A DNA stretch of 64,000 nt from a bacterium. GTDB lineage: Bacteria > Patescibacteriota > Dojkabacteria > SC72. Below the pieces are notes generated by a model that was not told the origin of the DNA, made no database searches, and saw only the letters and a program-made list of their open reading frames with translations. The stretch spans positions 91,374 through 155,373 of the forward strand of contig JALHDC010000002.1 in the NCBI GenBank assembly GCA_022840695.1, written 5' to 3'. This document shows positions 20,259-42,140 of this stretch, one piece after another. Position 1 is the first letter of the stretch. The number at the start of each line of letters is the position of its first letter. Made by a program: the position numbers and the translations under genes.

Positions 20259-22745
20259 ATGAAAATTACTTCAAAGACGATAGCAATAATATCTTCCATA
20301 GTAGTGGCAGGAAGTGCTGGAGGAATGTACTACTTATCCAATCAAGATGAGCCCGAAGTATTAGCGTGGGTAGATACTAGCTGGACTTTTAGAAGATCCG
20401 TTGATGTTGCAAATAGCAGTGGAGATACATTAACAAATGAGGATGTATTAATAACTCTTGATACAGCGAGTCTGGTATCTGCTAACAAACTACAATCAGA
20501 TTGTGACGATCTAAGGCTTGTAGACACAGATGATGCTACATATCTATCATTTTGGTTAGAAAATGAATGCAATGTTTCAGAGACTAGAATATGGGTACAA
20601 GTTCCGAGCTTACCTGATGGTGGTAAAAGTATATATGTTTATTACGGTAATGATAGTGCAGTAAATACTGAAGAGAGTTGGAGTGGCAATTTTATTTCAT
20701 TAAATGATGATACCTGTCCAACCGGATGGAGCTATTACTCTACTTTAGATCAGAAATTTCCATTAATCTCTGCAACAGCAGGAACAACAGGAGGGGCAGA
20801 TTCACATACTCACGGGAATTATTCTAGAACTACTGGAGGAAGTGGAGGAAGTGGCATATATTGGAGGTCAGGAACAACTGCATACCTCTCTTCTACGCAT
20901 GCACATTCATACACTATAGTAACTAATAGCTCATCTGTTTTGCCCCCATATCTTGATATACCATTTTGTGCAAGCGAAAATTTTAATCCTAACACGGGAA
21001 TGATTACACTGTTTCTTAATACTGTTCCCACAGGATGGACAAGATTTTCTGCGCTTGATTCGAAATTTCCAAGATCAAATGAGACATATGGAGGAACTGG
21101 TGGAGCATCCACACACAAGCACACATTTAATTCAGGAACTACTGGATCTGCTGGACCTAGTCCGAAAGGAAGCGGAAGCTACTATCAAGCAGGAAAGAGT
21201 ACACATACGCACACATGGAGTGGAGGGGACCTTTCCACAAACAACAATATTCCACCATATAAAGCAGTCGTCTGGGGAGAATCCAATGATGCAACTCTTC
21301 TCGATGGTATCCTAATGCTTGCAACAGCTGTTCCACCACTCGGTTGGACGCAAAACAACTCTGTTGATGAATATTTCCCATATGGTTCTGCCTCCTACGG
21401 TACTACAGGTGGTGCATCCACACATACACATACAGTACCAAGCGGATCTACTAACACTGTTGGAGGGTCCGGATCAGTAGGTTCAGGAACCGGCTTGCTT
21501 TGTGGACCTTCACATTCTCATAACTTAGGAAGCTTCACTACTAACTCACAAAGTAACTACCCACCATACATTTCATTTAATTTAGTTGAAAGAAAAACTT
21601 CCGTCGCTATAACAGTACAAACAGAGGAAACAAGTAATACTACAACGAATCCTCCTTCCTCTTTGCTCACAGAAGGAGAAACTAACCCTACACTGGTTGT
21701 AGATACAACTCCTGAATTTTCTGCCGTTTTCAGTGACCCAGACGCCGAAGATACTGGCAACTTCTACAGAATACAGGTAAATACAAACCAAAGCTTCAAT
21801 GGAACTGAAATGTGGGATTCAACAAAAACCGCACTTGACCCTGTATTAACAAATGGAGCTAGATCTCCAGATATTTCATATGCAGGTACAACACTAGCAT
21901 GGGGCACAACATACTACTGGAGAATGAAGTTTTGGGACAACAATGAATTTGCATCAGAAAGTCCTTGGTCAGCTACTGCAAATTTTACGATGAATCATCA
22001 AGCAAATGCTCCTACATCTCTTCTTACAGAAGGATCTACAAATCCTTTAAAAACATCTCTAACTCCGTATTTCTCGGCAATCTTCGAAGATGGTGATGCA
22101 ACAGATACTGGAACTCACTACCAAATTTTAGTAAATACTGCATATGATTTTACAGGAACAACTATGTGGGATAGTACAAAAACTCAATTTGGATCACCCA
22201 TAACAAATGGATCAAGATCTTCAAATATTACATATGCAGGAACAACTTTAGAAGAAGGTACGGCATATTATTGGAAGATAAGATTCTGGGACGAGAATGA
22301 TTTAGAAAGTGTATATTCAGGAGTGGCAAATTTTTTGACTGAATCTGGCCCATCTGCACCATCCGGATTACTTTTTGATGGCAGACCAAACCCAACATAT
22401 CTGCTCTCTACAACTCCACCATTTTCAGCGATATATTCTGATATTAATGGAGATAGTGCATCTGCATACCAAATTAATGTAAACAGTAACAATCTATTTA
22501 CAGGAACAGTAATATGGGATTCAGGAAAGCAGTCTATAACTGTTGCAAATGGAGCAAGGTCATCAGATATAACATATGATGGAACAGAATTAATAAACAG
22601 TAAGAATATATATTACTGGAGAATTAGATTCTGGGACAGCGACGATATGGTCGGGGAATGGTCCTCTACATCATACTTCACAGATTCCACAGTACCTCAA
22701 TTTATAATGGAAGGACTCTCTCTTCAAGGAATAAAGATAGATTAG
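20259..22745 (+). CDS. large secreted/membrane-anchored repeat protein: DUF2341-like N-domain, 3 phage-tail-collar (MdpB)-like repeats, 3 FN3-like repeats
   Basis: 828 aa. N-terminal anchor. WVQVP...IYVYYGN is DUF2341-like. Three repeats carry PTGW...TGGASTHTHT...N.PPY. Three ~115-aa repeats carry WDS.K and YYW[RK][IM][RK]FWD. Confidence 0.75.
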   Translation: MKITSKTIAIISSIVVAGSAGGMYYLSNQDEPEVLAWVDTSWTFRRSVDVANSSGDTLTNEDVLITLDTASLVSANKLQSDCDDLRLVDTDDATYLSFWLENECNVSETRIWVQVPSLPDGGKSIYVYYGNDSAVNTEESWSGNFISLNDDTCPTGWSYYSTLDQKFPLISATAGTTGGADSHTHGNYSRTTGGSGGSGIYWRSGTTAYLSSTHAHSYTIVTNSSSVLPPYLDIPFCASENFNPNTGMITLFLNTVPTGWTRFSALDSKFPRSNETYGGTGGASTHKHTFNSGTTGSAGPSPKGSGSYYQAGKSTHTHTWSGGDLSTNNNIPPYKAVVWGESNDATLLDGILMLATAVPPLGWTQNNSVDEYFPYGSASYGTTGGASTHTHTVPSGSTNTVGGSGSVGSGTGLLCGPSHSHNLGSFTTNSQSNYPPYISFNLVERKTSVAITVQTEETSNTTTNPPSSLLTEGETNPTLVVDTTPEFSAVFSDPDAEDTGNFYRIQVNTNQSFNGTEMWDSTKTALDPVLTNGARSPDISYAGTTLAWGTTYYWRMKFWDNNEFASESPWSATANFTMNHQANAPTSLLTEGSTNPLKTSLTPYFSAIFEDGDATDTGTHYQILVNTAYDFTGTTMWDSTKTQFGSPITNGSRSSNITYAGTTLEEGTAYYWKIRFWDENDLESVYSGVANFLTESGPSAPSGLLFDGRPNPTYLLSTTPPFSAIYSDINGDSASAYQINVNSNNLFTGTVIWDSGKQSITVANGARSSDITYDGTELINSKNIYYWRIRFWDSDDMVGEWSSTSYFTDSTVPQFIMEGLSLQGIKID

Positions 22746-33241: not shown

Positions 33242-33925
33242 ATGCAAAATTTAGGAAACAGAAATGTAGTATTGTTATCAAAAAATATTGATGTAAGAGA
33301 GAAGATTAGATTGATTATGAGAAAATTCCCAGAGTTTAATCTTCAAATTCTTAAATCAAAGGAATGTTTACTATCCATAATAGATCCGAAGTTAATAATA
33401 ATAGATTTGGAAAACCTTAAGGATCTGCCAGAGATCTTAGAAACACTCAAAATATTAAGAAAAAGTTATTCCTTTTATTCTTTATTTTTAGTATATGACA
33501 TAGAAAAGATTGATATACTAGAAATATTTAAATATGGGATAGATGATATTATTGAGAATCCTATAAAGATATCTTTAATAGATGCACTTTTTCACAGATA
33601 TTTTAGAAATTTTAAAGATACTGTTGATACAGTATTACATTATAGAGGTATAGATCTGTATTTAGAAGATTCCTATGCTATTTTCAGAGAGTGTAAAATA
33701 CCATTGAATAGGGTAGAGGGCAGGATTCTTTCAATATTAATGGAATCACACAAACCAATTTCCATTGATGGTATAAGATCAAAAGTAAGTTATAGTTTAA
33801 ACAAAGAGATATCCAATCAAAATATACGAATAAATATATACAGGATTAGACAGAAATTTATTAAATGCACAGGACTTAATATCATAGGGAATGAATACGA
33901 AAGGGGATATTATATATCCGTATAG
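33242..33925 (+). CDS. OmpR/PhoB-type winged-helix DNA-binding protein with degenerate (pseudo-)receiver domain
   Basis: 227 aa. C-terminus RILSILMESHKPISIDGI...IYRIRQKF...GYYI matches the trans_reg_C pattern. N-terminus lacks the acidic pocket of receivers. Confidence 0.55.
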   Translation: MQNLGNRNVVLLSKNIDVREKIRLIMRKFPEFNLQILKSKECLLSIIDPKLIIIDLENLKDLPEILETLKILRKSYSFYSLFLVYDIEKIDILEIFKYGIDDIIENPIKISLIDALFHRYFRNFKDTVDTVLHYRGIDLYLEDSYAIFRECKIPLNRVEGRILSILMESHKPISIDGIRSKVSYSLNKEISNQNIRINIYRIRQKFIKCTGLNIIGNEYERGYYISV

Positions 33926-33926
33926 A

Positions 33927-36557
33927 CTATATCTTTTTCTTCCATTCCATTATCTTATTTAATGCCTCAATAGGGGTTATATTATCTATATCCATCTTTT
34001 GAATCTCTCTTTCTATCTCTGATTCTTTAGCGGAAAATAGCGGATATTGATATCCATTCAAGCCATTCTTTGAGATATCCTTTTTAGGAGATACTATATC
34101 TGCATCTCTAAGACTATTTTTTCCAGAGAACATATTTTTTTGTTCAAAACTTTCTAATATCTCATTGGCTCTTTTTATAATTTTCTCTGGTAATCCTGCC
34201 ATCTTTGCAACATATATACCGTAACTTCTATCTGTTCCTCCTTCAACGATTTTTCTTAAAAATATCACAGTACCTTCTTCCAGATCTTCTTCTACCAATA
34301 CATTGTAATTCTTTACTTTCTCTGGATATTTCTCAGAAAGTTTTAATAACTCATGATAGTGGGTAGCGAAGAGTGTTCTAGCTTTTGTATCTTTAATTAA
34401 ATGCTCAGAAAGGGCCCATGCGATACTTACTCCATCATATGTACTTGTACCTCTTCCTACCTCATCTAAAACTATTAAGCTGTATTTTGTAGCATTATTT
34501 ATAATATTTGCAGCTTCATCCATTTCAACCATAAAGGTACTTCTTCCTCTGCTAAGATCATCAGAGGCACCAACTCTTGTAAATATTCTATCTACTAGTG
34601 ATATTTCTGCACTTTTAGCAGGAACAAAACAGCCTATCTGTGCCATTAACACTATAGTCGCTACCTGTCTAATGTATGTAGATTTTCCTGACATATTTGG
34701 TCCTGTTAAAATAGCCATACTGGAATCAGTTAGATTTAGCAATGTATCATTTGATATGAACTCCTCCTCTGAAACTTGTTCTACAATAGGGTGTCTACCA
34801 CTTTCTATATTAATAATTCCATCCTTCTCTCCCATTTCATATATAGTTGGTTTTGTATAGTTAGAATGACCTGCAAGAAATGCAAATCCACTTAATACAT
34901 CTATGTTGGCTATTGTAAAAGATACTTTCTGCAACATCTCTAAATGAGGAAAAAAAGAATCTCTAAAATCAGAAAACAGGTTATATTCAATCAAACAAAC
35001 CTTATCTTGAGCATTTAGTATAATATTTTCTCTCTCCTTTAATTCCTCTGTTATATACCTTTCTGAATTAACCAATGTTTGTTTTCTTATGTATCTTTCT
35101 GGAACTTTTTCCTGATGAGTTTTTGTTACTTCGATATAGTAGCCAAAGACTCTATTAAAACTTACTTTTAGGGAGGATATTCCTGTTTCCTCTCTCTCTT
35201 TAGATTGAAATTCTCTTATCCAAGATTTACTATCACCTGAAAGAGATCTTAATTCATCAACTTCTTTGTTAAATCCTTCCTTTATTATTGTACCTTCTGT
35301 TATGGATAGGGGTGGATCTTCTACCAGTGTAGTATCTATTTTTTCTATCAAATTTTTTATTAATTTAGTATCAACATCAGTATATTTTATATTCAATTCC
35401 TTTTTGATTATTTCTGATATTTCAAGAAATCCTTCCAAAGATCTTTGTAATGCTTTCATATCCCTAGCATTAACTCTACCCAAACCTATCTTCCCAACTA
35501 TTCTTTCAATATCATCAATGTCCTCCAAAATGCTTCTTACCTGTTCCAATGTATTGGAATTTTTTGTGAATTTATCAACCATTTGTAATCTCTCTTCTAT
35601 TTCCTTTACTTCAATTAAAGGATTGAGCAACCAGGAGTAGAGAAGTCTTTTTCCCATTCTTGTATTACTTTTGTCTAAGACAGAGAGTAGGGAATTCGAG
35701 ATGTCTGAGGTATATGCATTTGTAATTAATTCTAGATTTCTAATAGTCGAGCTGTCTAACACCATCCTTTTATTCATCTTTACTCTGTGTGGTTTGAGTA
35801 TATGCACTGGATCCATTAACTGAGTATCCTCTATATACTTAATTATCATTGCTACAGAAATTAGATCTATAGATTCTTTTTCAATATCAAGGGAATTTGT
35901 ACTTTTTATTTTGTAGAACTTTTTAATGATTTCCTCAGAATACTGCCTATTCTTTAAACCCTTTTCTACAAATTGAACAGGTATTTTACCGATATTTAAA
36001 TTTTCCTCACCTTCTATTAGCAATATTTCAACAGGATCGTAGGAAGATAGAATATAGGGAATTGAATTCTTGTTTAATTGTTCATTAAGAAGCAAAAACT
36101 TACCTGTAGATACATCACATAGAGAGGCGGTTATTTCTTTTTTTTCAATGTATATTGCACAAAGATATGAATCTTTCAATATACTAGCTTGATCTCCATC
36201 TAAAGTTCCAGGTGTTACAACTCTAGTCACACCTCTTTTCACTATACCTTTAGATACTTTAGGATCTTCTAACTGATCAACAACCACTACACACTGTCCT
36301 GCTTGTACTAATTTGGGCAAATATTGATCTATTGCCTTGTGTGGAAATCCTGCTAATGGTACTCCATTTTTTTTCTTATCTCTTTTTGTAAGGGTAATGT
36401 TTAATATTTTGGAAGTGATCTTTGCATCTTCTCCAAAAGTTTCAAAAAAATCTCCCATTCTAAAGAGAACTATTTTATCTGGATACTGCTTCTTAAAACC
36501 CAGATACTGTTTCATCATAGGTGTATCATTCATTGGGAAAAGTATATCACGAATCAA
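33927..36557 (-). CDS. mutS: DNA mismatch repair protein MutS
   Basis: 876 aa. Walker A GPNMSGKST. MutS domains I-V. Confidence 0.9.
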   Translation of the reverse strand: MIRDILFPMNDTPMMKQYLGFKKQYPDKIVLFRMGDFFETFGEDAKITSKILNITLTKRDKKKNGVPLAGFPHKAIDQYLPKLVQAGQCVVVVDQLEDPKVSKGIVKRGVTRVVTPGTLDGDQASILKDSYLCAIYIEKKEITASLCDVSTGKFLLLNEQLNKNSIPYILSSYDPVEILLIEGEENLNIGKIPVQFVEKGLKNRQYSEEIIKKFYKIKSTNSLDIEKESIDLISVAMIIKYIEDTQLMDPVHILKPHRVKMNKRMVLDSSTIRNLELITNAYTSDISNSLLSVLDKSNTRMGKRLLYSWLLNPLIEVKEIEERLQMVDKFTKNSNTLEQVRSILEDIDDIERIVGKIGLGRVNARDMKALQRSLEGFLEISEIIKKELNIKYTDVDTKLIKNLIEKIDTTLVEDPPLSITEGTIIKEGFNKEVDELRSLSGDSKSWIREFQSKEREETGISSLKVSFNRVFGYYIEVTKTHQEKVPERYIRKQTLVNSERYITEELKERENIILNAQDKVCLIEYNLFSDFRDSFFPHLEMLQKVSFTIANIDVLSGFAFLAGHSNYTKPTIYEMGEKDGIINIESGRHPIVEQVSEEEFISNDTLLNLTDSSMAILTGPNMSGKSTYIRQVATIVLMAQIGCFVPAKSAEISLVDRIFTRVGASDDLSRGRSTFMVEMDEAANIINNATKYSLIVLDEVGRGTSTYDGVSIAWALSEHLIKDTKARTLFATHYHELLKLSEKYPEKVKNYNVLVEEDLEEGTVIFLRKIVEGGTDRSYGIYVAKMAGLPEKIIKRANEILESFEQKNMFSGKNSLRDADIVSPKKDISKNGLNGYQYPLFSAKESEIEREIQKMDIDNITPIEALNKIMEWKKKI

Positions 36558-36574
36558 TATTGTGATACTACAGG

Positions 36575-39154
36575 TTACTTGCTAAGAATTATCTTACTTT
36601 CTTCCTCAGCTACAACCTTTCTTGCTTCTGCAATATCTTCAGAAAGCACAGAGATACCATACACACCAACCTGTACACAGTATCTTATTAATGGCTTACT
36701 ATTCTCAGCAACTACAATTACACTATCTGTTTTTCCTTTAACTACATCTAATACATTATCCAAAACTTTGAATACACTGTTTCGAGCTAAATCATATTTA
36801 ACATCAGTATCATCAACTTTAAATCCTTGCATCTGTTTTGCAATTCTTGGCATATTTAAAATTAATCCATCTATTTTTGTTTCTGCTATTTCATCAGCCA
36901 ATATTATCTCTGCAGGATTATCAAGTATTGCATATATTTTAAAGGTGGAAGTTCTTCTCAATTTTTCTCCCATTAACTGTTTCTTAAATTCTTTCATGAC
37001 TTCTCCACTCATCGGAGAGTGTAGAGCAACTGAAACATTTCTTTTTTTATAAATATTCCTTACCCTCTTAATTATTTTAATAATTCTTTTTAGCATTTCT
37101 AGATTATTTACATAGTGTGTACCACCATATACTTCATCAGAAAGATCTGAAGATTCATATGTTTTACCTTTTGTGAGAGATCTAAAATCTTTTACTTTCC
37201 CTGACCCTATTGAGAGTATTACTTCATCACCATGTACCAAATCAACATATTCTAAAATCTTCTCAGATATTTTCTTTGAGAAATCAACAAACTCCTTTTC
37301 TTCAACATATGCCATGAGATGCTTCCCATCCTCTAAAAGAATTTTATCCAAATCTAAATACACTAAACCATTGGAATTACCAATATATTCAAAAAGATCT
37401 TTTGGCTTTTTATCCATCATACTAAACACTCTTGTAGCACAAGGGGGTAGGGTGGAATCTTTAGGAGGAAGTACCTTTTCCTCTTCCTTGCTATCTGACT
37501 TTTGAATTTCTTCTTCTTGAAGAAGATCAACTCCAACAACATCACCTTTGCTATATGCATCCACAACAGGATGAACTTCAGGAGCAGAGTCAATTTTTTC
37601 TGCAAAATATACTGTACCTGAATTACCATCTAATTTTATCCAATCCCCAGATTTTAAAACCTCAGAAGCTGTATTAGTACCAACAACAGCAGGAATACCT
37701 AATTCTCTACTAAGTATTGCTGTATCACTCGTTATTCCCCCTGTATCCATAATTACACCCCCACAAGAGATTATCATGGATTCCATTTCTGAGGAGTATT
37801 TCTTAATCAAAAGAATATCCTGTTTTGTAAACTTGGTATCTACCGGAGAATCAACAACTGTAATTTTACCTGTTACAACTCCAAAACTAGCACCTATACC
37901 GGAAACAACAAAATCATCCTGTTTTACATCTTTCTGCTCATTTTCTGATTCTTTCTTTGCAGAAAGAATTAATTTTTCTAAATTCACATTTTTCTGATTA
38001 CTATTCTTTTGCATTAATCTTTGAGCATCTGAGACAGCCTGTGTAACTATCATGCTCTCACCTTTATACTTTTCTACGAAAGCAATAACTAATTCTCGAA
38101 TACTTCTTCTTGTAATATCATTAACATCTACAATAACTCTTTCTTGAACCATTGGCTCATACAAAGATTTGTTTTGGAGTATCCAAAATCGTCCACCAGA
38201 AAGAACCCATTCCAGATTCTGTATCTGTCTAGATTTATTCTCTACAATCAAAGCAATTTTTGATATCTCTTCCATATCCTTATCCGAAAGCTTCTGTCTA
38301 TGACTCCAATTTGCAGATATCTTTATTTTTTCAACATTGCTCTTACCTCTAGGTGAAGATTTCAATGTACGAACCTTCATCCATTCTTGAGGTGCAATAT
38401 GCTTCTCTACTACAGTTAAATCTTTTTTGTTAAGAAGGTATGAGTCAGGTGTAATCTCTCCAAGAGAAATTACATCTCCCAATCCAAAAACTGCTTCAAT
38501 ACTCAATTTACTACTATCCTGTGTTATTGGATCTGTGGTAAATACAACTCCCGATACTTCTGATTGAACCATTTTCTGTACAACAACAGCCAACTTTACA
38601 TCAGACAAATCTATGCCCATTTTGGAAGAGTATGCGACCACATCATCGGAAAACATTGATGCATATACTCTCTTTATTGCATTTTTCAAATCCTCATACT
38701 TTCTTACATTAAGCTCTGTAGAAAATATCCCACTGAAAGAAACCTGTTCATTTTCTGGAAATACAACAGATGATCTCACAGATACCCATGCATCTGTAAA
38801 GCCTGAGAGTCTAGTATAGGCACTTAAGATTTCTTCTTGTACCTCTTTACTAAATTCGCTTTTTAACAATACATTTTCAATCTCTTCTTTTTCTGGATTT
38901 CTACCTTTAGAAAGAAGTTTCTTTTGAGCTGATTCTAGAGAGGTATAGCATAGATCCACAAAGACATTACTTGATATAACAAAGAATTCAGGAACAGGTA
39001 CATCCATGTCTTTTAATTGAAAAAGACTTAATCCCTTCCTTCCAATTCTACTTTCATTTAAATCTTTTGCTGAATAGTCTTCAAAAAAGAAAACATTACT
39101 CTTTTTTGTAGGCATATTTTCCATCTTTAACTGGGCAGTAAAAATTAAGATCAA
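36575..39154 (-). CDS. PEP synthase / pyruvate-phosphate-dikinase-like protein (PPDK_N ATP-grasp + PEP-utilizers swivel domain with His replaced by Asp + divergent C-terminal domain)
   Basis: 859 aa. N-terminal GRKGLSLFQL. Swivel motif GIGASFGVVTGKITVV...GGITSDTAILSRELGIPAVVG. Canonical enzymes have TSHAAI at this site. Confidence 0.7.
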   Translation of the reverse strand: MILIFTAQLKMENMPTKKSNVFFFEDYSAKDLNESRIGRKGLSLFQLKDMDVPVPEFFVISSNVFVDLCYTSLESAQKKLLSKGRNPEKEEIENVLLKSEFSKEVQEEILSAYTRLSGFTDAWVSVRSSVVFPENEQVSFSGIFSTELNVRKYEDLKNAIKRVYASMFSDDVVAYSSKMGIDLSDVKLAVVVQKMVQSEVSGVVFTTDPITQDSSKLSIEAVFGLGDVISLGEITPDSYLLNKKDLTVVEKHIAPQEWMKVRTLKSSPRGKSNVEKIKISANWSHRQKLSDKDMEEISKIALIVENKSRQIQNLEWVLSGGRFWILQNKSLYEPMVQERVIVDVNDITRRSIRELVIAFVEKYKGESMIVTQAVSDAQRLMQKNSNQKNVNLEKLILSAKKESENEQKDVKQDDFVVSGIGASFGVVTGKITVVDSPVDTKFTKQDILLIKKYSSEMESMIISCGGVIMDTGGITSDTAILSRELGIPAVVGTNTASEVLKSGDWIKLDGNSGTVYFAEKIDSAPEVHPVVDAYSKGDVVGVDLLQEEEIQKSDSKEEEKVLPPKDSTLPPCATRVFSMMDKKPKDLFEYIGNSNGLVYLDLDKILLEDGKHLMAYVEEKEFVDFSKKISEKILEYVDLVHGDEVILSIGSGKVKDFRSLTKGKTYESSDLSDEVYGGTHYVNNLEMLKRIIKIIKRVRNIYKKRNVSVALHSPMSGEVMKEFKKQLMGEKLRRTSTFKIYAILDNPAEIILADEIAETKIDGLILNMPRIAKQMQGFKVDDTDVKYDLARNSVFKVLDNVLDVVKGKTDSVIVVAENSKPLIRYCVQVGVYGISVLSEDIAEARKVVAEEESKIILSK

Positions 39155-39160
39155 TATATA

Positions 39161-40339
39161 TTAAACAATACCTTTCGCCTCTAATTTTTGCAAGTCAATA
39201 TAGAATTCGTAGAGAATCTGGATAATAACCATGACAGGAACTGCTATAAATCCTCCAACAACTCCAAATAGTGTCAAAAATATTATTACTCCTAGCATTA
39301 CCATTATTGGTTTTAATCCAACAGCATTTCCCATAACCTTAGGTATTATGATGCTATTTTCAATCATTTGGTAAATCACAAATGATCCTAGTAAAATTAC
39401 TGCCTTTATTGGGCCAACTGTAATTAATGCTACTAAAGACATCAAAACACCTGCTAAAGAGGAACCCAAGTTTGGAATTATCCCTAAGAATGCTGTAAAC
39501 ATCGATAAAGGTAATGCAAATGGAACACCTAGAATAGTGAGTAGGATAGCAGAAAATACTGCTACTAAGGAACTCACCAAAGCCTGTCCCAAAACCCATC
39601 CTCCCAACTTTCTTTCTACATCCATAACTAATCTCCTAACTCTTTCCCTCTTCTCGTCGGATACAATTCTAATCAATAATATATCGAAGAATGAATCATG
39701 TTCTGAAACAAGATATATTGAAAAAACAATAGAAGTAACTAGAAATGCACCAGTACTAAAGAATCCAGAAAGGAATCCAGCAACATTCTTTACATTACTC
39801 ACAGTTGGAAAAGACTTAATGATATCAGTAGCATACTGATTGATCATATCTGTTTCTAAAGAGTATCCTGCGATAGAGATACTTTCTATAAATTTCAAAC
39901 CATCATCTATCCAATTAGGAACCTCTTTTACCAAACTGGTTAATTGGTTAAAGAAAGGAACCAGTATTAATACAAACACTACTTGAATGAGAATGAAAAG
40001 GATTACATAGGAGATTGCAATAGACCAACCCTTAGAAATACCACGACCCATTAACCATGCAACAACAGGTCGGATAGATGACATAACTGCAAATCCAAAG
40101 AAAAGGAAAAGTGATATTGCAAATAACTGATTAGCATAGAATACGAAAGAAAGTACAAGAAGAAGAAAAGCAATTAATCTAGGAGAAAAATCAATCATTA
40201 CAGTATCACCTCTTACAAAATCCTTTGATCTCATATAACTACCGTGTGTATCAGAAGATGTATTTGATCTTCTTGCAGTATAACTATCTTCTATTCTTGA
40301 ATTATTATCACTTACAGAAAAACTTTTTGCCATAATCAA
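39161..40339 (-). CDS. AI-2E family transporter (PerM/YhhT-like)
   Basis: 392 aa polytopic membrane protein with the conserved AI-2E C-terminal region. Confidence 0.7.
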   Translation of the reverse strand: MIMAKSFSVSDNNSRIEDSYTARRSNTSSDTHGSYMRSKDFVRGDTVMIDFSPRLIAFLLLVLSFVFYANQLFAISLFLFFGFAVMSSIRPVVAWLMGRGISKGWSIAISYVILFILIQVVFVLILVPFFNQLTSLVKEVPNWIDDGLKFIESISIAGYSLETDMINQYATDIIKSFPTVSNVKNVAGFLSGFFSTGAFLVTSIVFSIYLVSEHDSFFDILLIRIVSDEKRERVRRLVMDVERKLGGWVLGQALVSSLVAVFSAILLTILGVPFALPLSMFTAFLGIIPNLGSSLAGVLMSLVALITVGPIKAVILLGSFVIYQMIENSIIIPKVMGNAVGLKPIMVMLGVIIFLTLFGVVGGFIAVPVMVIIQILYEFYIDLQKLEAKGIV

Positions 40340-40471: not shown

Positions 40472-41353
40472 CTAGTACAAATCCAGAAATCCAAACACTG
40501 CCATAAGGTTATTCTCTCTAATCACCTTCATTGCAGCTTCTAATTCTCCTGCAGCAACAGGTAAAGATTCATCTGTAACAGCATTACCATTAACATCACT
40601 ATCTACAGAATATGTAATCTTGACCTTCTCCTCAACCTCAACAGAATTTCCAGCCTTATCTATAACCTCCATCTCAAATACATTTGGTCCTTCATCCAAA
40701 AGAATACCTGTGATTAAGAATTTACCCTCCTCATCACAAACTGCACTATACTTATCTACACCCCTCCTCACTACAACCTCAGCTTCTGGTTCAACATTAC
40801 CCGTCAATGTAAATGTCTCAGTTCCCACCTCTTCTGGATATTTAACCTCACCCAACACAGGATCCGTCCTATCAACCTCAACTATCCTCATATCAGATTG
40901 AGCAGATACATATCTCTTTGGGAAACCCTTAACTCCAGCCACAGACACAGCATATTTACCTTCTAACTCTGCTCTGTATGAATATTCAAAAGTTGTATCT
41001 TTCTCAACCTTCACTCTTGCAACCTCCTCATTATCTACAAATACAAAAACCTGATCATATCCATCAGCCAATCCTCTAACTAATATATTCTCTTCATTTG
41101 TTAAAACCTCAGTACCTGAAAGAGATGGGGATTCTAATGTATCATCCAACTCCGGATTCCTACTAAACTTAACAAATGAATATATTCCGTAAGAAATCAA
41201 AAGAATACCAAGAAATATAAATATACTTCCAACAATCCTAGAAACCCTTTCCTGATCCTCAGGACTCTTAATTTCAACCTTAGAAACCATACTCTCTTCT
41301 CTTCTTAATTCCTTACTAACTTTTTGGGTAGATTTAGATTTTTTCTTTGCCAC
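40472..41353 (-). CDS. membrane-anchored surface protein with Ig-like beta domains
   Basis: 293 aa. Lys-rich N-terminus, one TM, beta-rich acidic ectodomain. Confidence 0.5.
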   Translation of the reverse strand: MAKKKSKSTQKVSKELRREESMVSKVEIKSPEDQERVSRIVGSIFIFLGILLISYGIYSFVKFSRNPELDDTLESPSLSGTEVLTNEENILVRGLADGYDQVFVFVDNEEVARVKVEKDTTFEYSYRAELEGKYAVSVAGVKGFPKRYVSAQSDMRIVEVDRTDPVLGEVKYPEEVGTETFTLTGNVEPEAEVVVRRGVDKYSAVCDEEGKFLITGILLDEGPNVFEMEVIDKAGNSVEVEEKVKITYSVDSDVNGNAVTDESLPVAAGELEAAMKVIRENNLMAVFGFLDLY

Positions 41354-41453: not shown

Positions 41454-42140
41454 ATGAACAAAGCAAAAAAGATTACATTGACATTCTTAGTAATACTATT
41501 AATAGTATCCCCCATACTCTTTCTTTTAATATATCCCAACTATAACAACATCAACCTCATTCTAAAATCCTTTGATTTCTACACTCTTTCTAAAGAAACT
41601 TCCATATCAACATTAACCACACTCTCTCCACTAAGAGAAAAATTTGAAGAAAAAGTATTAGGATATACATCCATAGAAGAATCACTTCAGAATACGGAGA
41701 TAGTATTAGACAGAAAGATCTTGGAAGAACTTAACACCACCATACACATAGAGAATATAAATGTAGAAGGAAAAATATATCAGGGGATCTCCTCGCTAAC
41801 AATGGATACCGGATTCTGGCACTTTCCAATTTCAAAATTCCCAGGAGAAAAAGGCAATACTGTAATCATCGGTCACAGATTTATGAACCTCCCACCCTCA
41901 AAAGACACATTTTTTAACCTAGATAAGATAAGTATAGGAGAAAAGATAGAGATAAAACATCACGAAGGAACCTTTACATACATAGTTGTAGAAAAGAAAG
42001 AAGTTGAACCAAACGATGTTTCTGTAATCCAAGATACTGAAGACTACAGAGTAACATTGATAACTTGCACACCACTATGGACATCCGAAAAACGCTTAGT
42101 AGTAATTGCTAAACTAGACAAACTATACAAAAAAGTGTAG
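41454..42140 (+). CDS. sortase family transpeptidase
   Basis: 228 aa. N-terminal TM, His motif IIGHR, active-site TLITCTP. Confidence 0.75.
   Translation: MNKAKKITLTFLVILLIVSPILFLLIYPNYNNINLILKSFDFYTLSKETSISTLTTLSPLREKFEEKVLGYTSIEESLQNTEIVLDRKILEELNTTIHIENINVEGKIYQGISSLTMDTGFWHFPISKFPGEKGNTVIIGHRFMNLPPSKDTFFNLDKISIGEKIEIKHHEGTFTYIVVEKKEVEPNDVSVIQDTEDYRVTLITCTPLWTSEKRLVVIAKLDKLYKKV

Follow-up and report, generated by a model that had tools for sequence, protein, structure and literature searches.

The PpsA-like gene and its domains

We analyzed a window of 64,000 nucleotides from a member of the Dojkabacteria (contig JALHDC010000002.1, positions 91,374 to 155,373 of the forward strand), an AT-rich stretch of approximately 31-33% GC that carries housekeeping genes, and focused on a minus-strand gene whose product resembles the phosphoenolpyruvate (PEP) synthase PpsA, except that the histidine carrying the phosphate in that enzyme is an aspartate. 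The longest open reading frame (ORF) of the gene runs from 36575 to 39154 on the minus strand, opens at a TTG codon (39154) and encodes 859 amino acids (aa). Since the ortholog proteins, P0001 among them, all begin at ATG 39124 (MENMPTKK), this TTG is probably not the start, and ATG 39124 probably is. Residue numbers below nevertheless refer to the 859-aa frame; subtracting 10 gives the numbering of the 849-aa protein, so that D477 becomes residue 467 counted from M11. The features of the gene are as follows.

36575..39124, minus strand: coding sequence of the PpsA-like protein, 849 aa from ATG 39124 (ortholog P0001 100% identical, 849 aa)
38168..39052, minus strand: ATP-grasp nucleotide-binding domain (PPDK_N; Pfam, residues 35-329, E 9e-62)
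37925..38134, minus strand: insertion of ~70 residues that separates the ATP-grasp domain from the swivel and is predicted to form a single long helix
37616..37828, minus strand: swivel (PEP-utilizers mobile) domain (Pfam, residues 443-513, E 6e-18)
37679..37741, minus strand: swivel-loop motif GGITSDTAILSRELGIPAVVG (canonical GGxTSHAAIVSRELGIPxVVG)
37724..37726, minus strand: GAT codon of Asp477, at the position of the phosphocarrier histidine
36575..37459, minus strand: C-terminal PpsA-type barrel with replaced catalytic residues (residues ~566-859)

An earlier reading of this DNA, made from its letters and ORF translations (below, the sequence-only reading), had recognized the PPDK_N and swivel domains, and Pfam bore it out: PF01326 (PPDK_N) scored 209.7 bits against a gathering cutoff of 27 and PF00391 (PEP-utilizers) 64.7 bits against 23.1, and all 24 family members examined carry both domains. 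The third PpsA domain, PEP-utilizers_C (PF02896), stayed below its cutoff with 16.2 bits against 22.8 and reached E<=0.01 in just 3 of the 24. The NCBIfam PpsA model NF005057 aligns from end to end (residues 18-858), at 305.1 bits against a cutoff of 598, and the TIGR01418 model for PpsA likewise failed at 278.9 bits against 739.75. Models for rifampin phosphotransferase (RPH; NF041857, 185.6 bits against 999), PigC (227 bits against 1300), RedH and pyruvate phosphate dikinase (PPDK) fall further under their own cutoffs than the NCBIfam PpsA model does. Pfam, NF005057 and Foldseek matches to the PpsA structures 2ols, 8a8e and 9dae thus agree on the order ATP-grasp, swivel, C-terminal barrel, which is that of PpsA. 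The related RPH architecture to which the sequence-only reading had pointed was rejected on the score of the RPH model, the central position of the swivel domain and the PpsA-type barrel that follows it. The ~70-residue insertion is not found in canonical PpsA and is, together with the second linker, the fastest-evolving part of the protein.

An aspartate at the phosphocarrier position

The coding strand reads ACG AGT GAT ACA (T-S-D-T) across the center of the swivel loop, and in HMMER alignments D477 falls on the TSH histidine of the PpsA structures 8a8e and 9dae, of RPH and of Enzyme I. The histidine of the G-G-x-T-S-H motif is therefore replaced by Asp477, just as the sequence-only reading had proposed for the motif TSDTAIL; the GAT codon was also correctly read, although it lies at 37724-37726 of the plus strand, two nucleotides away from the 37722-37724 given there. 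All 117 full-length orthologs, sharing 56-100% identity, have (T/C)-(S/C)-D at the motif. Despite the aspartate, the scaffold of the loop, GG-x-T-S-x-...-RE-x-x-IP-x-VVG, is kept.

A different histidine could in principle have taken over at the swivel, which is what the earlier reading had named as evidence against itself, but the family alignment shows no other conserved histidine in the swivel domain. H528, in the linker after the swivel, is 93% conserved in the core orthologs and just 29% across the family, and an alternative phosphocarrier histidine was thus ruled out.

Loss of the PEP/pyruvate site in the barrel

The positions of the C-terminal barrel that serve PPDK and Enzyme I as binding sites for PEP, Mg2+ and pyruvate are replaced as follows.

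LRxE: replaced by D601-x-D603 (Arg and Glu replaced, with an Arg-to-Asp charge reversal at 601)
VxRxxD: Arg replaced by S648
Mg-binding Glu: replaced by D745
NDL: Asn-Asp replaced by P769-R770 (NDLTQ replaced by MPRIAKQ)
Proton-donor Cys: replaced by Ile813 or Val815, depending on the alignment

Not one of 44 Asp-type representatives (described below) has the Asn-Asp pair or the cysteine. The second arginine of the canonical barrel motif RGxxR persists as Arg or His, and H612 is conserved, as it is in canonical PpsA. On the catalytic face of the barrel the core Dojkabacteria proteins share a set of polar residues (D601, D603, H712, D745, N746 and N767). Deeper members of the Asp clade do not conserve this set, and a subfamily of 685-754 aa has a shortened barrel. 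The sequence-only reading had described the last ~330 residues as devoid of recognizable PEP/pyruvate motifs. At the level of residues this holds, given the change from NDLTQ to MPRIAKQ, the Ile/Val in place of Cys and the Asp in place of the first PEP-binding Arg; the domain is not unrecognizable, however, since it keeps the PpsA barrel fold and is constrained as strongly as the other domains (see below).

Because the histidine is an aspartate and the Arg/Glu/Asn-Asp/Cys set of the barrel is gone, the protein is predicted to be incapable of the PpsA reaction and hence of PEP synthesis. We firmly conclude, from its residues, that it should not be a working PEP synthase or PPDK. This is the common part of the three options left by the sequence-only reading (a pseudoenzyme, an enzyme whose chemistry runs through an acyl-phosphate or in some other way, or a kinase with a different substrate), and that part stands; the choice among the three is not made by the sequence.

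The ATP-grasp site and the changes that accompany the aspartate

Mutagenesis of the RPH protein RPH-Lm has shown that Lys22, Arg117 and Thr136 position the ATP phosphates and that Glu297 is a Mg2+ ligand (PMC4844700). In our alignment these four residues map to K40, R127, T146 and E315. Among the Asp-type representatives (n=44) K40 is present in 40/40, R127 in 40/41, T146 as Thr in 36 and Ser in 5, E315 in 41/43 and Q327 in 41/43, so that all five phosphate and Mg2+ ligands are as in PpsA, the exceptions in the site being positions 313 and 329. By this comparison no known ligand of the ATP phosphates or of Mg2+ appears to be missing from the ATP-grasp domain. Around these ligands a number of positions differ between the Asp-type and the His-type proteins.

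Position 39: Arg in 31/40 Asp-type, Gly in 17/22 His-type (GGKG to GRKG)
Position 133, SSATAED loop: mostly Pro in Asp-type (31/40), Glu in 19/23 His-type
Position 143: Gln 12, Val 10, Ile 9 and Leu 6 in Asp-type, Gln in His-type (Gln-Gln of the glycine-rich loop)
Position 144: hydrophobic in Asp-type (Phe 17, Leu 14, Tyr 4), Gln in His-type
Position 227: GLGD in Asp-type, GLGE in His-type
Position 313, Asp of QDIEW: not conserved in Asp-type (D10/V7/N6/E6...), Asp in 20/23 His-type
Position 329: Lys in 35/43 Asp-type, Arg in 20/23 His-type (Q-x-R to Q-x-K)
Protein of the window against canonical: R39 for Gly, V130 for Ala and P133 for Glu (SSATAED), I143-F144 for Gln-Gln, D227 for Glu, N313 for Asp, K329 for Arg

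At the Asp position of SSATAED the protein of the window has Glu134, and the change of AED to (V/I)(F/Y)P goes with that of His to Asp. Position 329 is the equivalent of Arg337 in the inorganic phosphate (Pi) site of PPDK. That the aspartate is fixed across a clade and covaries with changes in the ATP-grasp active site goes beyond the sequence-only reading.

One further histidine of the ATP-grasp domain, H285 (WSHRQK, about 38300-38302), is specific to the Asp family and is present in 76/76 orthologs and in 23/24 members of the broad Asp family. In canonical PpsA the position is Glu (WVEKQ in the 8a8e alignment), and H285 falls in a low-confidence region of the structure model described below.

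Distribution of the aspartate and origin of the Asp clade

Among 5.8 billion collected protein sequences, the best 120 homologs share 56-100% identity with the protein, and those with a name are Candidatus Dojkabacteria. Taxon labels are those given by the submitters, and the many record titles reading 'uncultured Candidatus Saccharibacteria' apparently carry a generic label. In an exhaustive HMMER search over 1.84 billion cluster representatives, the aspartate persists down to ~30-45% identity, one Asn and one Ala excepted, and TSH or TCH first appears at ~30% identity or less.

For a closer view, 87 representatives of 50%-identity clusters with lengths of 600-1060 aa were aligned with MAFFT, giving Asp at the swivel position in 44, His in 23 and another residue or a gap in 20. 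A neighbor-joining tree from the ATP-grasp and swivel columns, which is crude and without support values, places 38 Asp, 1 Asn and 1 Ala sequence in one clade apart from all His-type sequences, suggesting that the change from His to Asp in this clade likely had a single origin. The clade reaches down to ~33% identity, and its members with a named taxon are all Dojkabacteria or WS6. Another five Asp sequences are dispersed over His-type or decayed lineages. In the short subfamily of 685-754 aa, also labelled Dojkabacteria, the aspartate is found in 16/16 readable motifs. In the tier of matches that follows, made up of RPH-like proteins or of PpsAs that are positive for PF02896 and mostly archaeal, 88/91 have His.

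The best 80 loci in GTDB species genomes (34-80% identity) belong to Dojkabacteria, WS6 or generically labelled Patescibacteria. Some of these loci lie on contigs of 0.56-0.76 Mb, among which is LBWK01000001.1 (locus L069), the first complete genome of WS6.

Other lineages without the histidine (with Ser, Phe, Tyr, Glu, Lys etc.) lie outside the Asp clade and have a decayed swivel motif, while that of the Asp clade is near canonical: counting non-gap positions, R483 is kept in 7/16 and E484 in 7/17 of the decayed proteins, compared with 36/44 and 37/44 in the Asp group. From this difference we argue that the swivel loop and its carboxylate would be functional in the Asp clade.

Such decayed proteins, with Ser, Phe, Tyr, Glu, Lys, Arg or Ile at the histidine position, include P0151, P0152, P0160, P0162-P0164, P0173, P0181, P0217 and P0235, and several of them keep the RGxxR arginines of the barrel. 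With this second set the catalytic histidine would therefore have been lost repeatedly in the superfamily, with differing outcomes. One Asp-type protein, P0269 (locus L090, 763 aa), has the aspartate in GGQTSDAAILSRELGIP together with a recognizable PEP-utilizers_C domain and a partly canonical ATP-grasp site, in which GQQ is kept, QDIEW reads QVVEW and Q-x-R is lost. Its gene adjoins those of glycogen phosphorylase and glycogen synthase, which recalls the glucan, water dikinases, and the protein may have gained its aspartate independently. A further group of relatives is very large (1100-2650 aa; P0166, P0175-P0177, P0184-P0189, P0191-P0195, P0199-P0216 and others) and combines one PPDK_N domain with a series of complete T(C/S)HAAI swivel domains, two to four in number and each with its His; these may be multi-carrier dikinase-like proteins.

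By sequence and structure, the nearest His-type relatives are mostly archaeal PpsAs (Pyrococcus, Staphylothermus, Methanothermococcus, Thermoplasmata and haloarchaea), and an archaeal origin of the ancestor of the Asp clade is possible. Reminiscent of this, a RuBisCO/AMP pathway of archaeal type has been reported for WS6 (PMC5113843).

Fold model and selection

An AlphaFold2 (AF2) model was built from an alignment of 76 sequences, with pLDDT 72.9 and pTM 0.41. Confidence is high in the barrel (~85-90) and the swivel domain and lower in the two linkers and in part of the ATP-grasp domain. In Foldseek searches the whole chain matched PpsA 2ols best (E 2e-33), followed by PPDKs (1kbl, 5jvl and others; E ~1e-26), and the barrel matched the C-terminal domains of PpsA with TM scores of 0.80 (9dae_A) and 0.83 (8a8e_A). 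The modelling suggested by the sequence-only reading therefore revealed a PpsA-type barrel; it was uninformative on the arrangement of the domains, and at this pTM, with full-length TM values of ~0.3 to every PPDK or PpsA conformer, the AF2 model holds no clue to the docking of the swivel.

Comparison with a 94%-identical ortholog gave dN/dS values of 0.041 for the ATP-grasp domain, 0.038 for the swivel and 0.049 for the barrel, and of 0.06-0.13 in the two linkers. Across the 76 orthologs 84 columns of the ATP-grasp domain, 21 of the swivel and 34 of the barrel are invariant. Strong purifying selection on each of the three domains is clear from these values, and the Ser-Asp loop is likewise strongly constrained. 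Both marks of a pseudoenzyme are thus found, namely missing catalytic residues and purifying selection (dN/dS 0.04-0.05, 80 species-level genomes). A protein of ~850 aa with a dN/dS of ~0.05 that is present in all 80 best-matching species genomes must have an important role.

Possible function of the protein

The gene appears from the above to be a neofunctionalized descendant of a three-domain PpsA and to encode a functional protein. As to its function, we lean, tentatively and at slightly less than even confidence, towards an ATP-binding conformational device in which the aspartate docks in the nucleotide site. In this view the protein would be a pseudo-dikinase with a regulatory or scaffolding role instead of a phosphotransferase of metabolism. 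The protein would still bind Mg-ATP, and the invariant Ser-Asp swivel loop would dock into the ATP-grasp site with its carboxylate in the place of the (phospho)histidine. It would then act as a nucleotide-dependent conformational device with a regulatory or scaffolding role, the remodelled barrel serving as a platform for oligomerization or partner binding. Candidate partners are the AI-2E transporter and MutS, whose genes flank the PpsA-like gene and are presumably transcribed with it. The gain of Arg39, the replacement of the acidic loop and Lys329 are what would be expected if a shorter, negatively charged side chain is accommodated in the site. Acidic residues are known to mimic phosphohistidine in HPr H15D/E, the HPr paralogue Crh has Gln15 instead of His15 and is purely regulatory, and in plant pseudo-response regulators the phospho-Asp is replaced by Glu.

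Several points weigh against a pseudo-dikinase with these partners. Retained chemistry explains at least as well why the Thr/Ser-Asp loop and the ATP-grasp residues of catalytic type are conserved almost completely. The Asp of QDIEW is unconserved, as listed above, and the metal site may have changed. The AF2 model is of moderate quality, with part of the ATP-grasp domain below 50. Finally, general collinearity of these small genomes is sufficient to explain the linkage to the AI-2E transporter and mutS, because trigger factor, ClpP and PBP1 are syntenic in the Dojkabacteria loci as well.

Retained chemistry, the main rival, would make the protein an active enzyme, in which the ATP-grasp domain phosphorylates the swivel aspartate and the aspartyl-phosphate then reaches an acceptor that is bound to the remodelled barrel or to a partner protein. 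A variant has the aspartate serve as general base or as a metal ligand in trans for swivel-gated ATP hydrolysis, replacing the lost Asp313. We consider such an enzyme unlikely, if deserving of serious attention. Conservation of the ATP-grasp residues together with the Ser-Asp loop is no less strict than in active dikinases, the R329K and G39R changes sit where the gamma-phosphate or an incoming nucleophile would be and covary with the His-to-Asp change, and Asp477 is gained where the canonical Asp313 is lost. Formation of an acyl-phosphate from a carboxylate and ATP is moreover the ancestral ATP-grasp reaction, ATP-grasp and swivel modules have repeatedly been re-targeted to new acceptors (RPH, HpeHI, VadK), and polar residues are conserved on the barrel face of the core Dojkabacteria. 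However, no acceptor site is conserved across the clade, given the loss of these polar residues in its deeper members and the barrel shortened in the 685-754 aa subfamily; RPH and VadK keep the histidine; an aspartate is much shorter than a histidine; and the dikinase route would require an unprecedented acyl-pyrophosphate. To our knowledge no enzyme of the PPDK/PpsA superfamily uses Asp, and we know of no repurposed relative that lacks the histidine. The more specific claim that the aspartate is a genuine phosphocarrier, from which an acyl-phosphate is delivered either to the remodelled barrel, with an acceptor there, or in trans to MutS or the AI-2E transporter, appears rather doubtful to us.

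A purely structural or scaffolding pseudoenzyme that binds no nucleotide, in which the aspartate and the ATP-grasp residues serve the fold or a fixed interdomain salt bridge, is improbable. Two of the three catalytic stations are destroyed, archaeal PpsAs, the nearest relatives with a solved structure, form 24-mers via the C-terminal domain (8a8e and 9dae have 24 chains) and the C-terminal helix is conserved in the PpsA-like protein, all of which would suit such a role. It is hard to see, on the other hand, how it would account for 95-100% retention of five phosphate and Mg ligands over more than 60% sequence divergence, and the swivel motif degrades (R483, E484) in the decayed lineages without histidine, not in the Asp clade.

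That the protein is still a PEP synthase or PPDK-type enzyme working through different residues is very improbable. The end-to-end alignment of the NCBIfam PpsA model, the many orthologs named pyruvate, water dikinase by JGI and the persistence of the second RGxxR position as Arg or His might point that way, but the scores are too low (305 bits against 598, and 279 against 740 for TIGR01418), and the His, Asn-Asp, Cys, Mg-binding Glu and two Arg are all replaced, one of the latter with reversal of charge at Asp601. These cutoffs and the seven substituted catalytic positions rule out an otherwise canonical PpsA in which the residues are unusual. An artefact of sequencing or assembly, the other outcome that the sequence-only reading had allowed to overturn it, is next to inconceivable, as is a pseudogene in decay, with the same residue in 117 independent assemblies, an intact frame of 849 aa and a dN/dS of ~0.05.

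Comparison with known systems

PpsA (EC 2.7.9.2; 8a8e from Pyrococcus furiosus, 9dae from Staphylothermus marinus, 2ols from Neisseria) has the same three domains in the same order and provides the best sequence matches (E 2e-59 and 1e-49) as well as the best fold matches. The PpsA-like protein differs from it in the His-to-Asp change, the replaced PEP/pyruvate/Mg residues, the extra helix of ~70 aa and the GRKG, (V/I)(F/Y)P and Q-x-K signatures, and it departs from what defines PpsA on four counts: the cutoffs of the hidden Markov models, the histidine, the PEP-site residues and PF02896. PPDK, which uses His455 and the Pi-site residue Arg337, shares the swivelling-domain architecture and the fold but is more distant than PpsA, and the equivalents of these two residues are here Asp and Lys.

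In RPH, the prodigiosin ligases PigC/RedH, the hydroxyphenylethanone kinase HpeHI and VadK (Rv1127c of M. tuberculosis) the ATP-grasp and swivel module has been re-targeted and the PEP domain lost or replaced. The PpsA-like protein resembles them in abandoning PEP chemistry, and it conserves the ATP-grasp contacts of RPH. It is unlike them in its domain order, with a central swivel followed by the barrel where RPH and PigC have the swivel at the C-terminus, and in lacking a histidine, which RPH keeps as the catalytic His825 and VadK as His422. Enzyme I shares the swivel and the barrel (E ~1e-6 by sequence and 1e-14 by fold) and hands its phosphate to a separate protein, which makes it a model for an acceptor in trans; it has no ATP-grasp domain, however, and uses His189 and PEP. 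Crh and the plant pseudo-response regulators are analogous, not homologous: their phospho-site is replaced while the fold and the partner surfaces are under selection, but their folds are unrelated and they have neither a swivelling domain nor an ATP-grasp partner.

We found no description of an Asp-for-His homolog of PpsA or PPDK in the literature searched, the coverage of which is incomplete. The orthologs are annotated as pyruvate, water dikinase or as PEP/pyruvate-binding domain proteins. This matters for metabolic reconstruction, since reconstructions of the candidate phyla radiation invoke PEP synthase for PEP/pyruvate interconversion where pyruvate kinase is missing (PMC7304191) and WS6 has been described as running phosphoglycerate to pyruvate (PMC5113843). 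If the PpsA-like protein cannot make PEP, as predicted above, this step in the Dojkabacteria would rest on another enzyme or be absent. The Asp clade may also be regarded as a natural experiment on the swivelling-domain mechanism, in which the nucleophile appears to have been changed once, early, and then held, with residues of the ATP site co-adapting. Should the aspartate prove to be phosphorylated, it would constitute new enzymology and the first Asp-based swivelling-domain phosphotransfer system.

Gene neighborhood

The genes around the PpsA-like gene are as follows.

39161..40339, minus strand: AI-2E family transporter (PF01594, E 2e-53), directly upstream, with a gap of 36 bp to ATG 39124
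33927..36557, minus strand: mutS, directly downstream of the PpsA-like gene, with a gap of 17 bp
40472..41353, minus strand: Ig-like (Big_13) surface protein, upstream of the AI-2E transporter
41454-42140, plus strand: sortase gene, divergent from the Big_13 gene

The minus-strand order in the window is thus Big_13 surface protein, AI-2E transporter, PpsA-like gene and mutS, with PBP1 further downstream. The transporter and the surface protein lie upstream on the same strand, in agreement with the co-directional arrangement noted in the sequence-only reading, and the AI-2E transporter and PpsA-like genes are probably co-transcribed. The AI-2E gene is directly upstream in 66/70 Dojkabacteria loci, with a median gap of ~40 bp, and this adjacency survives insertions between the PpsA-like gene and mutS. 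The linkage to mutS, which the sequence-only reading did not mention, is as consistent, mutS being downstream in 59/60 Dojkabacteria loci and within 200 bp in 43 of them.

Six distant Asp-type loci show how far this arrangement extends. It recurs in full in L087. In L085 a gap of 14 bp separates the PpsA-like gene from mutS downstream, but nothing of the usual upstream context is shared and no AI-2E gene lies nearby. In L086 mutS is ~3.3 kb off, L088 has ClpB as neighbor and a DNA-alkylation repair gene near, L089 has an OGG glycosylase neighbor, and L090 has glycogen genes near. The adjacency to mutS, OGG and alkylation repair could reflect an association with DNA repair or merely an ancestral gene order.

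A component of a defence system was ruled out by the absence of PADLOC matches for the PpsA-like protein and its AI-2E neighbor. Rfam and ARAGORN detected no RNA elements near the gene, the only hit being a tRNA-Val at 45 kb.

Other observations in the window

Between mutS and PBP1 lies a plus-strand ORF of 227 aa (33242-33925) with no more than a weak OmpR-type winged-helix match (Trans_reg_C, E 0.005). A receiver domain was not detected in it, and the syntenic gene of L087 encodes Response_reg and Trans_reg_C, suggesting that the ORF may be an atypical, degenerate response regulator.

At 771-2063 on the plus strand the window encodes an enzyme with the fold of 5-enolpyruvylshikimate-3-phosphate synthase (PF00275, E 5e-64), a member of the MurA/AroA family. 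MurA and AroA both consume PEP, so the cell probably needs PEP, which the sole PpsA-like gene of the window would be unable to make.

Finally, the local GC content rises to 0.395, against ~0.31-0.33, at 20259-22745 (plus strand), where an 828-aa protein with a DUF2341 domain and three Rha78A-like Ig domains is encoded. It is probably a surface or secreted protein and may have been gained horizontally.

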